Shown in pieces: positions 1,068 through 11,823 of a stretch of DNA of 11,823 nt. The notes under the pieces were generated by a model. It did no database searches. It saw nothing but the letters and a program-made list of their open reading frames with translations, and had not been told where the DNA came from. Origin of the DNA: Puniceicoccales bacterium (GTDB lineage: Bacteria > Verrucomicrobiota > Verrucomicrobiia > Opitutales > JAIRLG01); NCBI GenBank assembly GCA_031288595.1, contig JAITRB010000020.1:1-11823 (forward strand), given 5' to 3'. The translations under genes and the position numbers were made by a program. Each line of letters starts with the position of its first letter. The first letter of the stretch is position 1.

Positions 1068-1442
1068 CTACTGCTGGCAGCAGCGGATCCGCACGATGCG
1101 GCGGCACCCAGGCATCCGGTGCAGCTGTTCCAAGACTTCGGCCAAGCGCAGGCTCAGGGCGTGACGAGCGACGCTGTTCAGGACATCCACCAGCAGCACA
1201 TCGTCCCGAATGACCTTGCGAGGATGGCAGTACTGGGCCAGCGCGGGACCCACGATTTCCGGCCAGCGGCGCGCGATCCGCTCCTCCAGGCGCAGCAGTG
1301 CTTCTGGCAGATTTTTTTTCAGCCAGCGTTCCATGGTATCACCCATCGGCTTGGCCGCCAGATCTTTGCCCACATTGCCATTGGTCGGCAGACCGCGCAG
1401 AGCGGCGATCAGGTTCTCGACGCGGCGGGGGAAGCTCGCCAT
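1068..1442 (-). CDS. DUF721 / DciA-like protein
   Basis: 124-aa ORF. The segment 'RWPEIVGPALAQYCHPRKVIRDDVLLVDVLNSVARHALSLRLAEVLEQL' fits the DUF721 pattern as I recall it (W..IVG..A.H..P......L.V.V.....A..L). The ATG at 1440-1442 lies 3 nt after the stop (1446-1448) of the upstream gene, which suggests translational coupling. Confidence 0.65.
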   Translation of the reverse strand: MASFPRRVENLIAALRGLPTNGNVGKDLAAKPMGDTMERWLKKNLPEALLRLEERIARRWPEIVGPALAQYCHPRKVIRDDVLLVDVLNSVARHALSLRLAEVLEQLHRMPGCRRIVRIRCCQQ

Positions 1443-1445
1443 AGG

Positions 1446-4229
1446 CTAGAAATCGTAGGGGACCATTCCCTTCCGCAGGCCGGCCATCGCCGCATCCAGC
1501 GAGCCGAGGGAAATCGTTTCCTGGAAGGTATCGGCCAGAGGGGCCAGTTTCAGCCCATGTAGGGTCTTGAGACCGTATTCCCAGGCCCGCTGGTAGAGCG
1601 AGGACAATGCCGCCATATTGGGCCGGTCCAGATAGAGCTCTAGGGTCTGGGATTGGTCGATCCATCGCTGTCGCACAGCCGCTGCCTGAAGCAGGGATTC
1701 CGCATCGAGTTCGAAGGCCGTTCGGGCGACGGCCCGTACCGTTTCCGGCCAATCAGCCGAGAGCAGTGCCATGGACTGCCCACTGCAGAGCTTTTGGTAG
1801 AACTCCGCCGTCCAGACGCCCGCGCTGCGGAGATAGTGGACGAAGGCATGCTTGGGAAAGAGCTCCGGCTCTTCCCGATTTTCGGGAGAACTCGGCGGAT
1901 GCAGCTGCCACGTCGCCGGCAACATGCCGGGGGAACAGCCCATCAGTCGGGCGGCGGATTCGATCGCCGGAAGGGCCAGGAGATAGGCATGGCGCAGGCC
2001 ATAGTTCAGCAGGCGCTGACGCAGGGGCTCCCAGTCGAGCGAGGGCGTTCTCATCTCTCGATGCCTGTCCTCCTTCGCCGTTCCACCTGCCCGCAGCGTC
2101 CGGCTGTGACACTCCCAGGGAAATTTTCCCTGTGCCCAGAGCGAATGCCCAAAGCACGGGTAGCGACCCTTCTCCTGGGCCAGGTCGATGGAGACCTCAA
2201 TCACGTCGTAGGAAAAAACCTCCATGCATTCGTCCTGAAAGGCAAGAGAAGCGGGAGCGTCGAAGGCCAGTTGTTTTTGCCACAGCGCCTCCTGCAGGCC
2301 GACGAGTCCCAGGGCGATGGGCCGATAGCACAGCGTCAATGCCTCCGCGGCCGGAGAAGGATAGGGCTTGGCGTCGAGCATCGCGTCCAGCGCCCGTACA
2401 GCCAGGCGCACGCTCCGCCGCAGCTGGGCTCGATCGAGGGTGCCCTGCGCGTCCAGATGTCGCGGTAGGGAGAGAACGGCGATGGGACAGCCCAGCGAGG
2501 CCTCTGGCTCCGACCGCAGGAGCAGTTCCGAATCCACGCCGCTGCTGTGGAGCAAGCCCTCCGGCGCGAGCATGTGGTCCCCGTTACAGCGATCCTTGAA
2601 GGCGAGCCGCGGGATTCCATTTTCGTAGATACGGGCAAGGATCTTTCCCCAGAGAGCGGCTGCCGGCAGGCTTCGGCCCCAGCAGCGTCCCGCACGCGCC
2701 TCCTGCTCTTGAGCCTCGTAGGCACTTTCAAAGGCCTCGCCATACAGGGTCTGCAGCTGGCGCACCTCTTCCACACGAAACAGCATCCATTCCCCTTCGG
2801 CCTGCACCCGCTTCAGGAAGAGATCGGGAATCCAGAGCTCCGTGGCGAGGGAGGAACTCGTGGCCCGCGCCCCCGACTGCCGGAAGTCGATGAAGTCCTC
2901 GATGTCTGCATGCCACAGTTCTAGCGCAGCCTTGCCACAGAGCTTCGGGTTCTCGCCGATGGCCGGTCGGGCGAGGGCGAGCTGGTGCTGGTGCAGTTCC
3001 AGAAATGGCATCACCCCAGCACTGCGCTGCCGCGTGCCCCGAATCGGGCTGCCAGCTCCCCGCACCGATGTCCAGGAACCGCTCAGCGACGCGCCCCACT
3101 TGACCGCCAGCGCATTGTCCGCGATACCCTGGGCCATGATGCTCTCCAGGTCATCCCGCAATTGGTAGACATAGGCGGAAAGGAGATGGGCCTTCGGCGT
3201 ACCTGCGTAGCTCAGCACCGTAGGGGCGACACAGAAGCGCCGGTCTTTGAGCAACTCGTAGAGCTCGATCACCTGCTCCTCGTGAGGCGAGGAGTTCTCG
3301 TGTAAAAATATCCCCATCGCCACCCGCATCCACAGGAACTGCGGCAGTTCGTCGACCTCGCCGCTCTCCCAGTCTCTCAGGAGGAAGTTCTCCAGCAATT
3401 CCTGTGTTGCCAGGCCATCCCAGCGCTCGTCGGCCCCCACATCCAGCGCTTCGGCCAAACGTCTCAGGTCCCAATCCAGCATGCGGGAATGCAGAATGCC
3501 CCTCTCGACGGCCCGCTGGATATGGCGCGGAAATGCTTCCCGATAGGCCTGTTCCAGGAGCTCCGGAGCGGCCGGTTCCCAGGCCAGGAAGCGCGAGTAG
3601 AGGAAGCTCCAGCGGAAGCGCGCCGCGAAGAAGTCAAACTCAGGCGCGACGGCAACCAGGCCCCGTGCCCCTCGGTTCAAGTGGACTTCCAGATCCGACT
3701 GCTCGATCTCTCCCTCGAGCTGCTGGCCCAGGCGCTGGGCAATCTCCGTTGGCGAAAGGGAAAGATCGAGCCCACGGGAGGCAAAGGCGATCCGCGGCAG
3801 CAGCTCCCCGATCGTCCACAGATGACTCTGGCCATCCGATTCCTTCACCAGCAAAAAACTCTCCTGGGCCGACATTGCCGACTTTGCCTTCTGGCCGCGC
3901 AGCTGCGCGTGCTCAGAGCGGTAGAGGATATAGGCCTCGGCGACCTTAAAATGCCCGCGGCGCATCAGCTCCTCCTGGACCATGTCCTGCACGCGTTCCA
4001 GTGCGATGCTGGGAACGCCAAGGGCGATGACCCGACGGGTGACGGTCTGGGCGATCTCGCGCGCTGAGGGGAAGGATTCCTGGTGCTGGGCGGCAAAGGC
4101 CTCGCTCACGGCCTTTTCGATCCTCTTGGCATTCCAGGCGACCTCCTCACCATCGCGCCGGATGAAGCGCGGGGCCTGGGAATTTGGAGACCAATTGTGG
4201 ATATTACCGGGAATAGCAGCGTAACTCAT
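1446..4229 (-). CDS. Ribonucleotide reductase large (alpha) subunit homolog, class I-like, with an N-terminal ATP-cone; catalytic residues substituted (probably non-catalytic)
   Basis: 927-aa ORF. ATP-cone: 'RFIRRDGEEVAWNAKRIEKAV...VQDMVQEELMRRGHFKVAEAYILYRSEHAQLR'. RNR alpha signature blocks: 'APTVLSYAGT', 'ELWHADIEDFIDFRQ', 'ELWIPDLFLKRVQAEGEWMLF', 'AFKDRCNG', 'YRPIALGLVGLQEAL', 'AWEYGLKTL'. ATG at 4227-4229. See findings for the active-site substitutions. Confidence 0.9.
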   Translation of the reverse strand: MSYAAIPGNIHNWSPNSQAPRFIRRDGEEVAWNAKRIEKAVSEAFAAQHQESFPSAREIAQTVTRRVIALGVPSIALERVQDMVQEELMRRGHFKVAEAYILYRSEHAQLRGQKAKSAMSAQESFLLVKESDGQSHLWTIGELLPRIAFASRGLDLSLSPTEIAQRLGQQLEGEIEQSDLEVHLNRGARGLVAVAPEFDFFAARFRWSFLYSRFLAWEPAAPELLEQAYREAFPRHIQRAVERGILHSRMLDWDLRRLAEALDVGADERWDGLATQELLENFLLRDWESGEVDELPQFLWMRVAMGIFLHENSSPHEEQVIELYELLKDRRFCVAPTVLSYAGTPKAHLLSAYVYQLRDDLESIMAQGIADNALAVKWGASLSGSWTSVRGAGSPIRGTRQRSAGVMPFLELHQHQLALARPAIGENPKLCGKAALELWHADIEDFIDFRQSGARATSSSLATELWIPDLFLKRVQAEGEWMLFRVEEVRQLQTLYGEAFESAYEAQEQEARAGRCWGRSLPAAALWGKILARIYENGIPRLAFKDRCNGDHMLAPEGLLHSSGVDSELLLRSEPEASLGCPIAVLSLPRHLDAQGTLDRAQLRRSVRLAVRALDAMLDAKPYPSPAAEALTLCYRPIALGLVGLQEALWQKQLAFDAPASLAFQDECMEVFSYDVIEVSIDLAQEKGRYPCFGHSLWAQGKFPWECHSRTLRAGGTAKEDRHREMRTPSLDWEPLRQRLLNYGLRHAYLLALPAIESAARLMGCSPGMLPATWQLHPPSSPENREEPELFPKHAFVHYLRSAGVWTAEFYQKLCSGQSMALLSADWPETVRAVARTAFELDAESLLQAAAVRQRWIDQSQTLELYLDRPNMAALSSLYQRAWEYGLKTLHGLKLAPLADTFQETISLGSLDAAMAGLRKGMVPYDF

Positions 4230-4485
4230 GGTGACTTGCGATATCCTTCATTAAATCACAAACCCCCAGAAAATTCAAGCTAAAACCATTGTGGAAGCCG
4301 TTTGTTCGGACGGAATCCACCCATCCAACCCTGCCCGAAGTAACTCGGTTCTGAGGGATGAAACCCCTCCATCGAGCGGAATATCCGCTCATCGGATTGG
4401 CGCTTTCGATCTCATGATCCCTCCGGAAGCCCCAGAGGAAACGCGCCGATCCGAGCCTCTCCTTCCCGCGTCGGTTCATCCTTCC

Positions 4486-4590
4486 CGCGCGATGGCCAGG
4501 CACAGCCCCCTTCTGGAAGAAGGGGGCTGTGCCTTGGGCGCCGGCGCTCCGCGCCAGCGCCGACTTTGCTCTGCAAAGGGCCATCGCGCG
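4486..4590. repeat. Cloverleaf-like composite palindromic intergenic element, copy A
   Basis: A 12-bp closing stem (CGCGCGATGGCC 4486-4497 / GGCCATCGCGCG 4579-4590) encloses three hairpins. Hairpin 1 is 4498-4534 (16-bp stem). Hairpin 2 is 4537-4561 (5+5 bp, C.A mismatch, TCC loop). Hairpin 3 is 4564-4578 (CTTTGC-tct-GCAAAG). It is related to the element at 7864-7984. Confidence 0.7.
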
Positions 4591-4623: not shown

Positions 4624-5436
4624 TCAGAGCTGAGTGCCCTCAGAGCGATGTTCAAGATCCTCATTCGGCCGAGGCGGAAGGGCCTGGGTCCCCTCCGACT
4701 GATAGTAATAGCCAACACCGTGCACCGTCCGGAGCTGATCCGTGGAACAGCCCTGCTGCTGGAAGAGCCGGCGAACGTGCATGATATACTGATCGAGAGA
4801 ACGACCTCTCGGGTTCGCAAAGCGTCCCCAAACGCCGCGGATCAGCTGACTTCGGGGCAATACGACGTTGGAATTATGCGACAGATAGGCTATGAGGCCG
4901 AAGATGCGTTTCCCGACGCACATGGGACCATCTGGGAACTGAAGCTCCATCTCCCCTGGTATGACCCGCACGCTGCAAAAGAAGAATTCGTCCTCGAGAA
5001 AGGACACACCCGAAGGCGCATCTTCCGATGCGCTCGTCGTCCGCCGGAGAACAGCATTCACTCGGGACAGAAGCTCAGCCAAACTGAAGGGCTTAGTCAG
5101 ATAGTCATCGCCGCCCATATCGAGGCTCTGCACCTTCGTCCGCTCATCTGTCTCTCCGGTCACGAAAATCGTCGGGACTGCAATTCTCTGCTCCTGCAGG
5201 CGCTTGAAGAGCAGCAGGCCGTTGCTATCGGGCAGGTTCAGGTCCAGCAGGAGGAGATGCGCACCGACCTTGGGCTGTTGGAAAAATTCCACTACTCCCC
5301 CGCCTTGGGAAAAGACCACGGCGCTCATGCCGATCAGCTCCAGCTGTTGCTTCACCACCCGAGCCAAAGGCGCATCATCCTCCACAATGACGACCTTCGG
5401 CTTGGCCAACAAACCCATAGACGATGAATGAGACAA
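4624..5436 (-). CDS. OmpR/PhoB-family response regulator (REC domain plus winged-helix DNA-binding domain)
   Basis: REC hallmarks: 'VVIVEDD', acceptor Asp in 'LLLLDLNLPD', 'IFVTGE', 'YLTKPF'. The C-terminal trans_reg_C-like segment ends in 'LRTVHGVGYYY'. The track start at 5436 is TTG, with AAGGGA 6-7 nt upstream. The ATG at 5418 ('MGLLAKPKVVIVEDD') is an alternative start. Confidence 0.85.
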   Translation of the reverse strand: MSHSSSMGLLAKPKVVIVEDDAPLARVVKQQLELIGMSAVVFSQGGGVVEFFQQPKVGAHLLLLDLNLPDSNGLLLFKRLQEQRIAVPTIFVTGETDERTKVQSLDMGGDDYLTKPFSLAELLSRVNAVLRRTTSASEDAPSGVSFLEDEFFFCSVRVIPGEMELQFPDGPMCVGKRIFGLIAYLSHNSNVVLPRSQLIRGVWGRFANPRGRSLDQYIMHVRRLFQQQGCSTDQLRTVHGVGYYYQSEGTQALPPRPNEDLEHRSEGTQL

Positions 5437-5520
5437 AACTTTCCCTTCTCGGACTGAAGGGAGAACAGGAAATGGGAATATCCCTCTGCGGCCAAGCTCT
5501 ATGCGCCGCGAGGAAAATTT

Positions 5521-6162
5521 TTACAGCATTTTGACTTCCGGAGAGACACCCGAGCGGTGAATCGCCGGTACGAGCCAGGAGGCCATGCCGGCCGCACTGG
5601 CCGCCTGAATGCCGAAAGAACTGTCCTCCAGCACCAGGCAGTGCCCGGGAAAAACCCCCAGTCTTTCCGCCGCCAGCAGAAAGAGATCCGGTGCCGGCTT
5701 TGTGTGCGCCACCTCTTCGCAGGTGACGATGACCGGGAAATAAGACTTGAGTTTCGTCCCTTCCAGGGATTGGTGGACGAATTCCCGATAACCGCCGGAG
5801 GCCACCGCCAGAGGCTTAGCGATCTTCCGACACTGTTCGGCGAACTGGACGACTGGCCGTACCGCCACAACATCCCCGATGTGCGCGGAGATGAAGTCCC
5901 GCTGGTAGCGCAGCAGAGTCTCCTCGTCGATCGATTCTCCAGTGCTGGCACAAATTTCGTCCAAGGTCACTTCCGTCCGCTGCCCCCCTCGTTCGCAGAA
6001 ATAATCCCAGCGGAATTCGTACTTCGCCCCGTAGCGCTTCAGGGAATCGAGCCAGGCGTGGTAGAATAGTGGCATTGTGTCGACCAGAGTTCCGTCACAG
6101 TCGAAGATGATGGCGTCGAACCCAGAGGGATCGGGAAAGACCATCACAGGAAATTCAGACAC
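5521..6162 (-). CDS. HAD-superfamily hydrolase, subfamily IA (phosphatase / beta-phosphoglucomutase-like)
   Basis: HAD motif I 'IIFDCDGTLVDT', motif II 'AVASGG', motif III Lys in 'HTKPAPDLF', motif IV 'LVLEDSSFGIQAA'. The track start at 6162 is GTG. The ATG at 6144 is an alternative start. Confidence 0.85.
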   Translation of the reverse strand: MSEFPVMVFPDPSGFDAIIFDCDGTLVDTMPLFYHAWLDSLKRYGAKYEFRWDYFCERGGQRTEVTLDEICASTGESIDEETLLRYQRDFISAHIGDVVAVRPVVQFAEQCRKIAKPLAVASGGYREFVHQSLEGTKLKSYFPVIVTCEEVAHTKPAPDLFLLAAERLGVFPGHCLVLEDSSFGIQAASAAGMASWLVPAIHRSGVSPEVKML

Positions 6163-6200
6163 GCTGCCCTGTTCTAAGATTTTCCGCTCATACGCAATAC

Positions 6201-6267: not shown

Positions 6268-7785
6268 CTAGGTATCCGTTTCGCCTGCCACGGCCCTCGC
6301 CTGCTCGACTCGCACGCTCAGCTTCTTGACCGAAAAGAGCCAGAAGCCACAGACCAGGACGAAGATCAGAAAGGAATAGGGGGCGATGAGGAAGTAGGAG
6401 GCATTGGGCACCAACACCAGCAGTGCGGCCTGAATCCAGGCCCCTCCGGCTTTGCCCAGGCGGCCACCGACCACATCGACCACCGCCTTGCCCTTCACCT
6501 TCATCTCCTCGTTCAGCGGGATATAGGCCATCTCCTTCGTCAGGTCGAAGAGCGCGTACTTCGTCGACTTGCAGATGATCAGGATCACCGTACCCAGGAT
6601 GACGGCGGCGAAGAGCGGCGTCAGGCCGATCGTACCCAAAACAGGGGCCAGGCTTTCGCGGAAGAGCACGAAGATGAAGAACAAGCTGCCGAGCAGAAGG
6701 ATGATCGCGGGCGTGATGGCCGCCGCGATCAACCAGCGGAACAGGCGCAAGACATTTCCCCCCACGATCATCATGATCATCGAGACGACTCCCGTCCAAA
6801 AGGTATACCAGCTCATATAGGTATTGAACGCATTGGGACTGCCGCAGTGCATGCCCACTTGCTTCTTCCAAAGAACCTCAATGAGATTGACACTGGTGCC
6901 GTAGCAGATGATCAGGGATGCGATGAACAGCAGGTACGGAGAGGTGAAGATCGTCATCAGGCTCTGCAAAAACGGCGTTTTCTTTTTCTTCTTCGACACC
7001 CCAGGAAGCTCGGGCTTGTCGTAGAAGCGCTTATCAGTCAGGATATGGCGATAGATCCAGCGATAAATCAGCATGGTTGCAACGCCGGACAGGACAACGA
7101 AGCCCATCAGCCAGTGGAGCGAGACCTGCCAACGATCGACTCCTGGGCTCTCGGGGATGTTGGAAAATCTTTCCCCGAACCAGCCGGAGAACAGCAGGGC
7201 CAGCTGAGCCACCAGGCCGAAAAAGGCATAAACCCGTTTCGACTCCGAGGTTTTGGTCACCTGGTTGGCGAACTGCCAGAAGGAAAGGGAGAGGATCGCG
7301 CTTCCCCATATCTCGGCGAGGATGTAAAAAAGCGCATACGACCAGATACCGACGATGGCCAATGGCCACTTGAGAAAACCAGGAGCGGCGGCCTGCCAGG
7401 CCCGAACGGTCTCCTGAGCCGGATGCAGGAGGTCCAGATGGGGATAGATCAGGAAGGCGAAGGCGCCGAAGAAGATGATGAAGGGCGAGAGCGTGGCATA
7501 GAACAGATGCTCATTGCTCAGGAGATCGCTCGCCTTCGTGTAGAGCAGCATGAAGATGATGGCTGACGGCATGACGCAGAAGCCCTTCAGGAAAGGGATC
7601 ACCTCCGCATCGGAACCCGGGCCGGTCACCACCAGGGCATCCTTGATGTTCCGCAGACAGGAGTAGTTGAAGAGGATGAAGAAGAAGATCAGGCTCATGG
7701 GGATGACCTTTTTCAGCTCATAGGTGTGGAGCGGAAAGAACATCCTGCGCCACCTGCCGAATTGCGATGCTGCTACTTCTGTCAT
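6268..7785 (-). CDS. tlc: ADP/ATP (nucleotide) translocase, TLC/NTT family
   Basis: 505-aa polytopic membrane protein. The N-terminus 'FGRWRRMFFPLHTYELKKVIPMSLIFFFILFNYSCLRNIKDALVVTG' matches the conserved start of Chlamydia/Rickettsia Npt/Tlc transporters as I recall them. Many hydrophobic segments and a 'KKKKK' loop are present. ATG at 7783-7785. Confidence 0.88.
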   Translation of the reverse strand: MTEVAASQFGRWRRMFFPLHTYELKKVIPMSLIFFFILFNYSCLRNIKDALVVTGPGSDAEVIPFLKGFCVMPSAIIFMLLYTKASDLLSNEHLFYATLSPFIIFFGAFAFLIYPHLDLLHPAQETVRAWQAAAPGFLKWPLAIVGIWSYALFYILAEIWGSAILSLSFWQFANQVTKTSESKRVYAFFGLVAQLALLFSGWFGERFSNIPESPGVDRWQVSLHWLMGFVVLSGVATMLIYRWIYRHILTDKRFYDKPELPGVSKKKKKTPFLQSLMTIFTSPYLLFIASLIICYGTSVNLIEVLWKKQVGMHCGSPNAFNTYMSWYTFWTGVVSMIMMIVGGNVLRLFRWLIAAAITPAIILLLGSLFFIFVLFRESLAPVLGTIGLTPLFAAVILGTVILIICKSTKYALFDLTKEMAYIPLNEEMKVKGKAVVDVVGGRLGKAGGAWIQAALLVLVPNASYFLIAPYSFLIFVLVCGFWLFSVKKLSVRVEQARAVAGETDT

Positions 7786-9132: not shown

Positions 9133-10188
9133 CTATAGCTCCTCTAGAGCCTCATCGGAGTCCGAGAAGTTCGGGAAAATCTCCTCATCGGAGGATGAGC
9201 TTTCTTGAAATTCAAGCGAAGAACTGGATTCCGATTTGCCCTCTTTTTTACCCGATGCTCCTTTATCACTTCCCGATTCCTTCAGGGCCGTCTGGAGAGC
9301 CTCCAGGTCGAACTTCGGCTTCGGTGCGTTTTTGCAATCGATCAGTTCCACTTCGAAGCACAGCAGCGAGCCCGCCGGAATCTTCGGCAAATCATGATCT
9401 CCATAGCCCAGGTCGGACGGGATCCACAGCTTCACGACTCCGCCCTTGGCCACCAGTGGCACTCCTTCGCTGAAACCAGGGATCACATCCCCCAGCAGGA
9501 AGGAAGCCGGATCTCGCCCCTTGGAGCTGTCGAACACCGTCCCATCGATGAGTGCTCCGCTGTAGTGGATCGTTACCTCGTGCTCCAGGCCTGGGTGCTC
9601 CCCTTCGCCCGCCTTGACGATCTTGTAGCGCAGGCCACTATCCGTCTTTTTGACCATCGGATCTTTGTCCAGGTTTTTGAGAAAATCCTCCGCCTTTTTC
9701 TTGTTTTCCGCTGCTGTTCTTTTCATCTCCTCTTCTCGAATCTTGGCCTGGGCCTCGGCCTTTTGGCGGAAGTATGGCATCGCCTCCCTCATCGCCTCTT
9801 CCTCTACTTCGCCCCCCTCGGCAACCCCTTCCAGTACGCACTTAATGCACTCCGGGGACAGCCCCAGCTCCTCAAGTCCCGCCTGTTTTCGAAGCATCCG
9901 ACCCAGGGTCCTGCAGTATCGGCATTCCTCTTCCTTCGTGAAAACCTTGGGCTTTGGAGCTTCCTGCTCGCCGTCAGAAGGGACCTCTGGCTTCACCGCA
10001 GCGGGCTTCGGAGCCTCGGAAGCCGGTGATGCTTTCGGCTTGTCGGCGCTTGCTTCCTGTGGCTTCACCGTTGAGATATGGGCGCTCGATGGCGTTACGA
10101 CCCCATGCTTCTTGCCCGGCCCAGCGGCGGCCAGAACAACACTCGTCCCACAGCACAGGGAGATCAAAACAACCCATTTCTTTTCCAT
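9133..10188 (-). CDS. mip: FKBP-type peptidyl-prolyl cis-trans isomerase, Mip-like, with signal peptide
   Basis: 351 aa. The hydrophobic N-terminus is 'MEKKWVVLISLCCGTSVVLAAAG'. The FKBP domain is 'VTIHYSGALIDGTVFDSS...FLLGDVIPGFSEGVPLV..GGVVKLWIPSDLGYG...IPAGSLLCFEVELID'. A helical FKBP_N-like region lies upstream of it. The ATG at 10186-10188 has AAGGA about 9 nt upstream. Confidence 0.9.
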   Translation of the reverse strand: MEKKWVVLISLCCGTSVVLAAAGPGKKHGVVTPSSAHISTVKPQEASADKPKASPASEAPKPAAVKPEVPSDGEQEAPKPKVFTKEEECRYCRTLGRMLRKQAGLEELGLSPECIKCVLEGVAEGGEVEEEAMREAMPYFRQKAEAQAKIREEEMKRTAAENKKKAEDFLKNLDKDPMVKKTDSGLRYKIVKAGEGEHPGLEHEVTIHYSGALIDGTVFDSSKGRDPASFLLGDVIPGFSEGVPLVAKGGVVKLWIPSDLGYGDHDLPKIPAGSLLCFEVELIDCKNAPKPKFDLEALQTALKESGSDKGASGKKEGKSESSSSLEFQESSSSDEEIFPNFSDSDEALEEL

Positions 10189-10309
10189 AGCAAGGATCCT
10201 TTATTGTGAAATTTACCGGCAGGTAAAGAAAAAAGAAGGGCGAGTTCTTCCAAAGCTCAGTTTCCCCTGAGTTACGAATGCGATCGGAACGAATTTCCGC
10301 CCCAAAACC

Positions 10310-10477
10310 CTAGGGAGTCGGCAGGGTCAGCGGCTCCATGCGGGCCAAAATTTCCGCCACCTGGAGCTCCGCCTCCGGTGTCATCTGCCCACTGCTCCGA
10401 ATCTGCTCCACGCCCCTTTTAAATTCCTCGACACCCTGACGTACCTTAGCCCGGGCCTTAAGTTCTTCCCTCGTCAT
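10310..10477 (-). CDS. Small hypothetical protein (55 aa, predicted helical); not in the supplied ORF track
   Basis: Hand translation: MTREELKARAKVRQGVEEFKRGVEQIRSSGQMTPEAELQVAEILARMEPLTLPTP*. The ATG at 10475-10477 has AAGGA about 10 nt upstream (minus strand 'gaaaggatgagataagATG'). It lies 51 nt downstream of the preceding ORF. No homology was recognised. Confidence 0.4.
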   Translation of the reverse strand: MTREELKARAKVRQGVEEFKRGVEQIRSSGQMTPEAELQVAEILARMEPLTLPTP

Positions 10478-10528
10478 CTTATCTCATCCTTTCTATCCAT
10501 ATCCTTGTTTTACCAGACCTATGAGCCC

Positions 10529-11014
10529 CTATAAATCCCGCACCGGCGCAGGATCTGCAGGGACCAGAGGAATGTCCGATATCGTCGAGGTTTCTGATCC
10601 CCGATCAGGTCCTCCCATCGCACCGACAGATCCCCCTATTCCTTGGCTAATTGCCCCCGAAACGCGTCGTCCCACGGCAATGCCCAGTTCTCTCACGCCC
10701 CCAGTCACTGCAGCAGCATCTCTGAGGGCATTCTTAAGCGCCTCCGCTAGGGTCCGCAGGATGGGAGAAAAAACCTTCTCCCTGAGCCAAGTCAAGGCCG
10801 ACTTAAGTGTATCTAAAAACTTCTGAGCTGCTGTTGTCTTCACCTCTCCTGTGACTCCCGCTGCACCGGCCTGTACCGCTGAAGAAGCTTCTCCCATCTG
10901 CCCAGCCAATCGAGAATTCTCTCCTCCACTCGCAACTTCGCCAGGATTCTCAGGAATGCCCTCATCCCAGCTCGTTCTGGAAACCGATATCCCGTCTCCC
11001 ACTCTATCTCCCAT
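10529..11014 (-). CDS. Hypothetical protein (161 aa; disordered acidic/Gly N-terminus, amphipathic central helix, glycine-zipper-like C-terminal segment)
   Basis: The ATG at 11012-11014 has a strong SD (minus strand 'agaGGAGGgtgttggtATG'). The segment 'GRRVSGAISQGIGGSVGAMGG' has a small-xxx-small/GxxxG pattern. No family was recognised. Confidence 0.6.
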   Translation of the reverse strand: MGDRVGDGISVSRTSWDEGIPENPGEVASGGENSRLAGQMGEASSAVQAGAAGVTGEVKTTAAQKFLDTLKSALTWLREKVFSPILRTLAEALKNALRDAAAVTGGVRELGIAVGRRVSGAISQGIGGSVGAMGGPDRGSETSTISDIPLVPADPAPVRDL

Positions 11015-11059
11015 ACCAACACCCTCCTCTCTTAAGTTTAAACCTTAAGTACTAGCTTA

Positions 11060-11087
11060 AGTTTACAGATCACGAGATGATCGTCAA
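11060..11087 (-). promoter_or_regulatory. Candidate sigma70-type promoter for the 10529-11014 gene
   Basis: The minus strand reads TTGACG (11087-11082), a 16-nt spacer, then TAAACT (11065-11060), about 45 nt upstream of the ATG at 11014. This rests on a consensus match only. Confidence 0.3.
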
Positions 11088-11111
11088 GCTCCAATACACA
11101 TCCCATGTCCC

Positions 11112-11189
<78 letters not shown>

Positions 11190-11280
11190 CATTGTTCCAA
11201 TGGTGATGGATCGGCGAATTCTTGGCAAGTGCATTCTGGAGCGCCGGTGGGCTCATCCCCAGCGGCGCAAGCCTATCCTA

Positions 11281-11580
11281 CTATTCACAGCCTGTTCACA
11301 ATTTCTCCGCCCGCCGACATCCTCATAATAAGGTATAGTAATTCTTAGTATTCTTATTATGCTCTGTGGATTTCTGAACAAGTGCGATCGAGCTAGTATT
11401 TAGGCTCTTTCCCAGAATTTTGGGCTATGAATAGCTTTGGGAATAAGCTGTGAATGAAAAAGAATATCTCTCCTCCCCGGTGGACTTATTCACAGTTATT
11501 CACGGCTTATTCTTGGGTTATTCACAGGTGTCTGTGAATGGAGAGGGCGCATTTTCAGCGAGATCTGGCTTTGTGAATTG
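11281..11580. other. Candidate chromosomal replication origin (oriC): DnaA-box-like cluster plus AT-rich unwinding element
   Basis: TTATTCACA occurs at 11486-11494 and 11518-11526, a perfect fit to TTATNCACA. Near-matches are TTATTCACG (11496-11504), TTATTCTTG (11507-11515) and CTATTCACA (11281-11289). Reverse-oriented TGTGAAT cores lie at 11449, 11533 and 11572. The heptamer ATTCACA/TGTGAAT occurs 6 times in 300 bp. An AT-rich block lies at 11321-11361. Confidence 0.55.
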
Positions 11581-11706
11581 TTTTTCTCGCGTGCTGTGAG
11601 GATCCCGCTCTGCATGCCATGCTGCCCCTGCCGGCGGTCTTTGCAGCTCTGGCAGGTTTTTCGCTTAAAATCCCCTAGGGAAAACGGGGCTTGTCTGGTA
11701 GCCGAC

Positions 11707-11823
11707 TTATCGGCGCGTCCGCCGAAAGATGTATTCCTGACAGAAGAAGTAGCCGGAGCCAGCGATGAGGCCGCCCAGGTGGGCAGAGTGCGCGATAAGG
11801 TCGCGTCCCGGAAGCTCGAGGAG
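11707..11823 (-). CDS. Rhomboid-family intramembrane serine protease, C-terminal fragment (gene continues beyond the window)
   Basis: Hand translation of the minus strand from 11823: LLELPGRDLIAHSAHLGGLIAGSGYFFCQEYIFRRTRR*. 'AHSAHLGGLIAG' matches the rhomboid catalytic-His TM motif (AH.AHLGG...G). The stop TAA is at 11707-11709. Confidence 0.6.
   Translation of the reverse strand, partial: LLELPGRDLIAHSAHLGGLIAGSGYFFCQEYIFRRTRR

Follow-up and report, generated by a model that had tools for sequence, protein, structure and literature searches.

Where does chromosome replication begin in a bacterial lineage that is represented only by fragmented metagenome-assembled genomes (MAGs), and can its origin be recognized away from dnaA? 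The question is raised by a 517-bp gap (11190-11706) that separates a tRNA-Glu gene from the stop codon of a rhomboid protease gene in a complete 11.8-kb metagenomic contig (JAITRB010000020.1; 11,823 nucleotides, the whole of which we analyzed and call the window). An earlier reading of this DNA, which we refer to as the original prediction, had singled out the gap for an array of DnaA-box-like 9-mers and had suggested a chromosomal origin (oriC) uncoupled from dnaA. Because the gap combines the DnaA-box motif and its enrichment, an architecture conserved down to the spacing of the consensus boxes, an AT-rich stability minimum that holds the least stable 40-mer of the contig, and a local skew switch, we consider it highly probable, judging from sequence, that it is the DnaA-dependent oriC, unlinked to dnaA, of an uncultured Puniceicoccales-like verrucomicrobium. 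The suggestion of a dnaA-uncoupled origin is thus upheld.

The gap was said to be non-coding and AT-rich, and both descriptions hold: its GC content is 48.5%, compared to roughly 55-65% elsewhere in the window, and none of its small open reading frames (ORFs) is conserved as coding, with stop codons present and a conserved start absent in relatives. Similarity across the gap appears in several overlapping frames at once, with stops and without conserved starts, which argues for conservation at the level of DNA and not of protein. An Rfam search of 10000-11823 returned the tRNA as its sole match and no other RNA family. The reported absence of dnaA and dnaN was likewise borne out, since a domain search finds no Bac_DnaA or DnaN domain in the window, and none within 10 kb on either side of the corresponding locus in a relative (L012, described below). 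Proximity to dnaA or dnaN is common for oriC and does not define it.

We numbered the DnaA boxes of the gap B0 to B12, allowing up to two mismatches and using alignment to relatives as a second guide (Table 1). There are 13 sites, of which 12 occupy positions that are conserved in relatives and span about 260 bp; B0 is found in the window only. All lie within two mismatches of TTATNCACA except B3, which has three. Eight of these boxes had been described before. The tandem boxes at 11486, 11496, 11507 and 11518 are at those coordinates, with starts 10, 11 and 11 bp apart, two of them (11486-11494 and 11518-11526, both TTATTCACA) are perfect matches to TTATNCACA as claimed, and the additional boxes at 11281 (+), 11449 (-), 11533 (-) and 11572 (-) are all present. 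To these we add five more boxes (11292, 11365, 11373, 11426 and 11438) and the AT-rich element that they surround.

The clustering is far above chance. Six sites with at most one mismatch to TTATNCACA fall in 11281-11526 where 0.32 would be expected, and none of 500 dinucleotide-preserving shuffles of the gap reached the observed count. The 7-mer ATTCACA, in either orientation, was also predicted to be overrepresented, and we find that it is: its six copies in the whole window all lie inside 11283-11578, against 0.93 expected from shuffles of the whole window (0 of 200 reached six) and 0.05 expected from dinucleotide-preserving shuffles of the gap only. A cited criterion for oriC is the presence of at least three DnaA boxes (TTATNCACA, at most one mismatch) with a mean spacing below 100 bp (PMC7561715), and the gap holds such a cluster. 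Read from these sites and from their counterparts in relatives, the predicted box consensus of the lineage is TT(A/G)TTCACA.

The boxes are also ordered. The sub-arrays B2-B5, B6-B8 and B11-B12 each run head to tail with starts 10-12 bp apart. The AT-rich element is approached from one side by B12 and B11 and from the opposite side by B10 to B6, all of them oriented toward it, and the distal array B5-B2 is directed away from it, giving the polarity string →→ [AT-rich] ←← ←←← →→→→ ←. B1 and B2 form the perfect inverted pair ATTCACA-N6-TGTGAAT at 11520-11539 that the original prediction had pointed out. The position of B0 has four to six mismatches in relatives, and B0 therefore probably lies outside the conserved core.

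Conservation of this arrangement was assessed in related contigs that were located via the neighboring proteins (Mip or rhomboid) and not via the boxes. The nearest Mip homologs, at 72-78% identity, come from MAGs labelled Puniceicoccales bacterium in the phylum Verrucomicrobiota. All three relatives whose contigs reach the region carry the cluster: L003 (GCA_031278595.1), L009 (a Joint Genome Institute metagenome contig) and L012 (GCA_031255915.1; the 67-kb contig JAIRRP010000052.1, of about 45% GC, with the cluster at about 27,590-27,880 of the record). The contigs of three further relatives (L002, L004 and L007) stop short of it. The order that L003, L009 and L012 have in common is rhomboid, box cluster with AT-rich element, tRNA-Glu, an ORF for a G-rich protein, and Mip. 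In a four-way alignment with the window, the positions of B1-B12 are conserved and the spacers between boxes have diverged; the box arrays are free of insertions and deletions, save one 1-nt insertion in the B8-B9 spacer of L012. The most conserved block of this alignment consists of B9, B10 and the start of the AT-rich element. Box counts exceed those of local shuffles in L003 (10 observed, 0.34 expected) and in L009 (5 observed, 0.18 expected), and all three perfect TTATTCACA sites in 20.6 kb of L012 fall within the cluster.

The arrangement has a narrow distribution. Synteny is absent around more distant Mip and rhomboid homologs (L005, L006 and L014), from which we conclude that the arrangement is confined to one lineage. 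Across 185,579 species-representative genomes, a pattern of two boxes placed some 95 bp upstream of tRNA-Glu matched only the L003 MAG, the same pattern gave zero matches in metagenome contigs, and a Mip-alignment scan of metagenomes gave one match, an unrelated FKBP at 31% identity. Base composition differs among the genomes despite the shared synteny and origin architecture (about 45% GC in L012 versus about 58-60% in the window and L003). We also note that the L002 and L004 contigs end just upstream of Mip (at position 1 and position 37, respectively), short of the tRNA-Glu/origin region, and assemblies may tend to break near this region.

Single DnaA-box-like 9-mers occur elsewhere in the relatives, at L003 6519-6527, L003 1431-1439 and L012 9834-9842 (AAATTCACA, ATATTCACA and TCATTCACA). 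They are promoter-proximal, at Mip, a 469-aa gene and the divergent rhomboid promoter region, and may either mark promoters under DnaA control or have arisen by chance. The window also has a box-like 9-mer, ATATCCACA at 4196-4204, within the ribonucleotide reductase gene; neither L002 nor L004 conserves it, and it is probably a chance match.

The AT-rich element that lies between B11 and B10 is a candidate DNA unwinding element. The least stable 40-mer of the whole contig starts at 11322, with a nearest-neighbor free energy (dG) of -40.0 compared to a mean of -58.8 (standard deviation 4.3) and a GC content of 23%. The homologous element is the least stable 40-mer in L003, L009 and L012 too (contigs of 3.6 to 20.6 kb, the window included). 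A GC-rich spacer sits at the same place in the relatives with another sequence, and is longer in L012. In the basal unwinding system (BUS) rule, a box with at most two mismatches is followed by a spacer of 0-16 bp and at least three NAN triplets (PMC8287927); the triplet consensus is 3'-[G/A]A[T/A]-5', with a GC cluster before it (PMC7561715). Beside B10 we find this configuration in L003 (offset 4, five triplets, ATA ATA ATA CTA ATA), in L009 (offset 4, four triplets) and in L012 (offset 10, three triplets) but not strictly in the window (see below), with the qualification that the rule is permissive in AT-rich DNA.

Strand asymmetry changes sign at the same place. In L012, where 10 kb could be followed on each side of the cluster, the cumulative GC skew describes a clean V over 20.6 kb; its lowest point is at 10707, and the boxes occupy about 10743-11035. 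Third-codon-position skew, computed for the top strand, is negative in each of the seven genes left of the cluster and positive in nine of the 12 to the right. Of the seven left genes, five are plus-strand genes (rhomboid, and four that lie upstream of the two on the minus strand), and since the skew is negative even in these, it is not a coding-strand effect. L003 also has a V-shaped profile, with a windowed minimum in 5200-5600, the interval that holds the boxes, and an exact cumulative minimum at 5631, about 200 bp from the AT-rich element. In its rhomboid gene (plus strand, left) the third-position skew is -0.42, and in the genes on the right it is positive. The cumulative curve of the window reaches its lowest point at 11324, within the AT-rich element. 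The sign of the skew goes from minus to plus, as at an origin; this is not the polarity of a terminus. Every gene of the window, and each of the 12 genes on the right-hand side in L012, is read in the direction away from the cluster.

Based on these observations, we propose the following course of initiation. DnaA would cooperatively fill the roughly 12 closely spaced boxes, and DnaA-ATP oligomers would be seeded on those closest to the AT-rich element and extend onto its ATA/CTA triplets, thereby opening 11321-11362. Seeding would occur at B9/B10, which together with the 4-bp spacer and the triplets make up the tightest and best conserved module, and possibly also at B11/B12. The DnaB helicase would then be loaded, helped by DciA. 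Strong outward transcription of tRNA-Glu may aid opening through negative supercoiling, a speculative step suggested by analogy with gidA in E. coli.

Inward-facing box pairs on both sides of the AT-rich element are kept in all four genomes, and this placement hints at a two-sided variant of the mechanism, in which an unwinding element of about 42 bp is flanked by the inward pairs B9/B10 and B11/B12 and DnaA filaments form on both strands. We regard this variant as doubtful. If it is true, the element would allow two helicases to be loaded symmetrically in a bacterium that depends on DciA, and the strongly transcribed adjacent tRNA-Glu promoter might further activate such an origin.

How well does the oriC reading stand against other uses of the same DNA? 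The boxes fit the DnaA consensus and lie about 90 bp upstream of the tRNA-Glu gene, as would also be the case for a DnaA-binding cluster that does not fire, either a titration or regulatory locus of the datA/DARS kind or a DnaA-controlled tRNA-Glu promoter, with the origin elsewhere, for example by dnaA. However, the sign switch in both GC skew and third-position skew lands on the boxes in three contigs, the boxes enclose the least stable 40-mer of every contig, and an AT-rich core surrounded by twelve sites whose phasing is conserved has the architecture of an origin. datA and DARS are not known to have an unwinding element; a locus of that kind would lack one and lie away from the skew switch, and this cluster contains an AT-rich stability minimum and sits on the local switch. 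A non-firing cluster is thus quite unlikely in our view. We think it very unlikely that the sites are instead the operator array of another transcription factor, of the OmpR/PhoB type or a dimeric regulator, that controls tRNA-Glu or the rhomboid gene. OmpR/PhoB-type regulators do bind tandem direct repeats about 10-11 bp apart, which is the spacing seen here, and an OmpR-type regulator is encoded in the window. In L012, however, no OmpR-type gene lies within 10 kb of the cluster, so that regulator and boxes are not linked. Instead of a few repeats of one orientation at or adjoining a -35 hexamer, the twelve sites face both ways, extend over 260 bp and lie at distances of 90-350 bp from the tRNA gene, which exceeds what an operator needs; the motif is the DnaA box, and the array encloses the AT-rich stability minimum and coincides with the skew switch. 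The dimeric-regulator alternative, which the original prediction had offered itself, rests on the one perfect inverted pair (B1/B2). The majority of the sites stand head to tail in arrays of either orientation around an AT-rich core, which does not agree with a simple palindromic operator. A CRP/FNR-type site reads TGTGA-N6-TCACA, and the pair has the opposite order (TCACA-N6-TGTGA), which disposes of a CRP-type site; B2 is moreover degenerate in L012 (TTATTACCA). We also rejected parS, as the boxes are not parS palindromes.

Short repeated motifs beside an AT-rich stretch are found in iteron-type origins of plasmids or secondary replicons as well, and the type of replicon is not directly given by contigs this short. 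Plasmid iterons are 17-22 bp long, whereas these repeats are of 9-10 bp and their 9-mers fit the DnaA box. Rep or partition genes are absent nearby, and the neighbors are housekeeping genes, both in the window (ribonucleotide reductase, DciA and tadA) and in L012 (ribosomal proteins L13 and S9, aspartyl-tRNA synthetase and CTP synthase). The locus is also syntenic across genomes of 45% to 60% GC. An iteron origin is accordingly extremely improbable. Several points nevertheless weigh against the oriC reading that we prefer. The skew of the window is clear and strong only within about 2.5 kb of the cluster, and the skew evidence as a whole is local, extending at most 10 kb to each side. In the window, the triplet run on the B10 side is broken by AGA as its third triplet (ATA ATA AGA ATA CTA), and the spacer on the B11 side is 18 bp long where the BUS maximum is 16, so that the strict rule fails on both sides. 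Finally, a second or better box cluster may exist beside dnaA elsewhere in the genome.

The genes around the candidate origin are listed with its boxes in Table 1; every gene of the window is on the minus strand. tRNA-Glu adjoins the box cluster in L003, L009 and L012 too. The conserved block upstream of it (11208-11239) is near-identical between the window and L003 and partially conserved in L009 and L012; it contains a -35-like hexamer, TTGCCA, and is probably the tRNA-Glu promoter. On the other side of the gap, the full-length rhomboid homolog in L003 bears PF01694. Beyond tRNA-Glu, all four genomes have a G-rich, low-complexity protein of 160-190 aa between tRNA-Glu and Mip that has no Pfam family. 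Its ORF has the most extreme GC skew among the genes of each contig, save a 56-aa ORF in L003, and is followed in L003, L009 and L012 by a small ORF of about 55-75 aa.

Table 1. Features of the candidate origin and of the rest of the window. Box sequences are those of the window; sequences at the same position in relatives are given under remarks.
Feature	Position	Strand	Sequence	Remarks
B12	11281-11289	+	CTATTCACA	toward AT-rich element; L003 TTGTTCACA, L009 CCGTTCACA, L012 TTATTTCCA
B11	11292-11300	+	CTGTTCACA	toward AT-rich element; L003 and L012 TTATTCACA, L009 TTGTTCACA
GC-rich spacer	11301-11320		ATTTCTCCGCCCGCCGACAT	B11 to AT-rich element; read from sequence
AT-rich element (candidate DNA unwinding element)	11321-11362			42 bp, between B11 and B10; DnaA-trio-like NTN/NAN triplet runs
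B10	11365-11373	-	AAATCCACA	toward AT-rich element, 4 bp from triplet run
B9	11373-11381	-	TTGTTCAGA	1-nt overlap with B10; L003, L009 and L012 TTATTCAGA
B8	11426-11434	-	CTATTCATA	L003 CTATTCACA, L009 TCATTCACA, L012 ATATTCCCA
B7	11438-11446	-	TTATTCCCA	L003 TTGTTCACA, L009 ATGTTCACA
B6	11449-11457	-	TCATTCACA	same 9-mer as tgtgaatga in E. coli oriC
B5	11486-11494	+	TTATTCACA	perfect TTATNCACA match
B4	11496-11504	+	TTATTCACG	L003 TTATTCACA
B3	11507-11515	+	TTATTCTTG	weak in three genomes; TTATTCACC at same alignment position in L012
B2	11518-11526	+	TTATTCACA	perfect TTATNCACA match; identical in L003 and L009
B1	11533-11541	-	CCATTCACA	faces B2; ATTCACA core invariant in all four sequences
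B0	11572-11580	-	CAATTCACA	window only
Conserved block upstream of tRNA-Glu	11208-11239	-	CCAGAATGCACTTGCCAAGAATTCGCCGATCC	sequence given for minus strand
tRNA-Glu (UUC)	11112-11189	-		ARAGORN; Rfam tRNA, 54.6 bits; transcription leads away from boxes
Rhomboid protease, 3' end	11707-11823	-		translation; last 38 codons, exits window; stop codon 11707-11709
G-rich protein ORF, 161 aa, unassigned function	10529-11014	-		L003 ~5746-6197; L009 796-1347; L012 11265-11807
Mip-like FKBP		-		
Pseudopilin		-		
TLC-family ATP/ADP translocase	6268-7785	-		Pfam E-value 2.6e-169; L002 3009-4526, L004 1991-3514
HAD hydrolase		-		
OmpR-type response regulator	4624-5436	-		
Class I ribonucleotide reductase, large subunit		-		start at 4229
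DciA	1068-1442	-		PF05258, E-value 6.7e-14
tadA-like deaminase		-		

Some of the remaining genes are of interest in their own right. The gene for DciA follows that for the ribonucleotide reductase large subunit immediately downstream, some 10 kb away from the candidate origin, and the same gene order is found in L002 and L004. Upstream of the ribonucleotide reductase start there is a non-coding leader of about 300 nt (4230-4530), which shows partial conservation with L002. The TLC-family ATP/ADP translocase is kept in L002 and L004. Translocases of this family are typical of energy parasites with an obligate intracellular life, Chlamydiae and Rickettsiales for example, and the presence of the gene is a hint of a lifestyle associated with a host. 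Beyond the candidate origin, divergent from rhomboid, L012 (5213-7348 and 7571-9757, both on the minus strand) and L013 (786-2978, minus strand) encode proteins of 711-730 aa that have no significant Pfam family; one of them gives a sub-threshold match to Otubain/Peptidase_C65 (E-value 0.006), a eukaryote-like deubiquitinase fold.

The proposed origin gives an uncultured, apparently host-associated Puniceicoccales lineage, known from fragmented MAGs only, a precise and testable starting point of replication together with a defined box consensus. It could be used as an anchor to scaffold and orient MAGs, and estimates of growth rate from metagenomic coverage (peak-to-trough ratio) could take it as their reference point. 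It would also be a natural case of a DciA-type organism with DnaA boxes flanking the unwinding element on both sides. The general understanding of bacterial origins is left unchanged, and a specialist would not be surprised by it.

Among known origins, that of E. coli, which lies between mnmG/gidA and mioC, is alike in having no linkage to dnaA. Each origin has about a dozen 9-mer DnaA sites in roughly 250 bp, several of them 1-3 bp apart edge to edge, and a GC-rich spacer between the first box and the AT-rich element; TCATTCACA is present in both, and in both a flanking gene is transcribed outward (gidA in E. coli, tRNA-Glu in the window). We read the polarity of E. coli oriC from the actual sequence, in which tgtgaatga is at 258-266 of the fetched record (L015). 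TGTGGATAA (R1) and tgtgaatga are found on the 3' side of the 13-mer region and are oriented toward it, and the TTATACACA and TTATCCACA sites point away; a logic of proximal boxes toward and distal boxes away from the AT-rich element is therefore common to E. coli and the gap. The differences are that the window consensus has T at position 5 (TTATTCACA or TTGTTCACA) and not TTATCCACA, that the gap has neither 13-mer repeats nor GATC clustering (there are two GATC in the gap), that inward boxes lie on both sides of the AT-rich element where E. coli has them on one side only, that the flanks are tRNA-Glu and rhomboid, and that the helicase loader of the window lineage is presumably DciA and not DnaC.

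The BUS in incC of B. subtilis consists of DnaA-boxes 6 and 7, DnaA-trios and an AT-rich region, and has been generalized (PMC8287927, PMC6669920). The candidate origin resembles it in the tandem pair B9/B10, the short GC-rich 4-bp spacer and the triplets with a conserved central base (seen in L003 as ATA ATA ATA CTA ATA) that run into the AT-rich region, and the polarity of the boxes relative to the triplets obeys the rule. Unlike in B. subtilis, the candidate origin is not bipartite around dnaA, the triplets are mostly 3'-TAT-5' and not 3'-GAT-5', with the window's own run interrupted, and a second inward box pair lies beyond the AT-rich element. Our search of the literature on origins of Verrucomicrobia, Opitutae or Puniceicoccales found nothing specific. 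With predicted dnaA-unlinked origins of the DoriC/Ori-Finder kind, the gap shares the criteria by which they are recognized, namely a DnaA-box cluster, an AT-rich element and a switch in strand asymmetry, and it differs from them in that its lineage is represented by fragmented MAGs only. In a lineage without a previously mapped origin, the gap is very probably an ordinary origin of the DnaA type.

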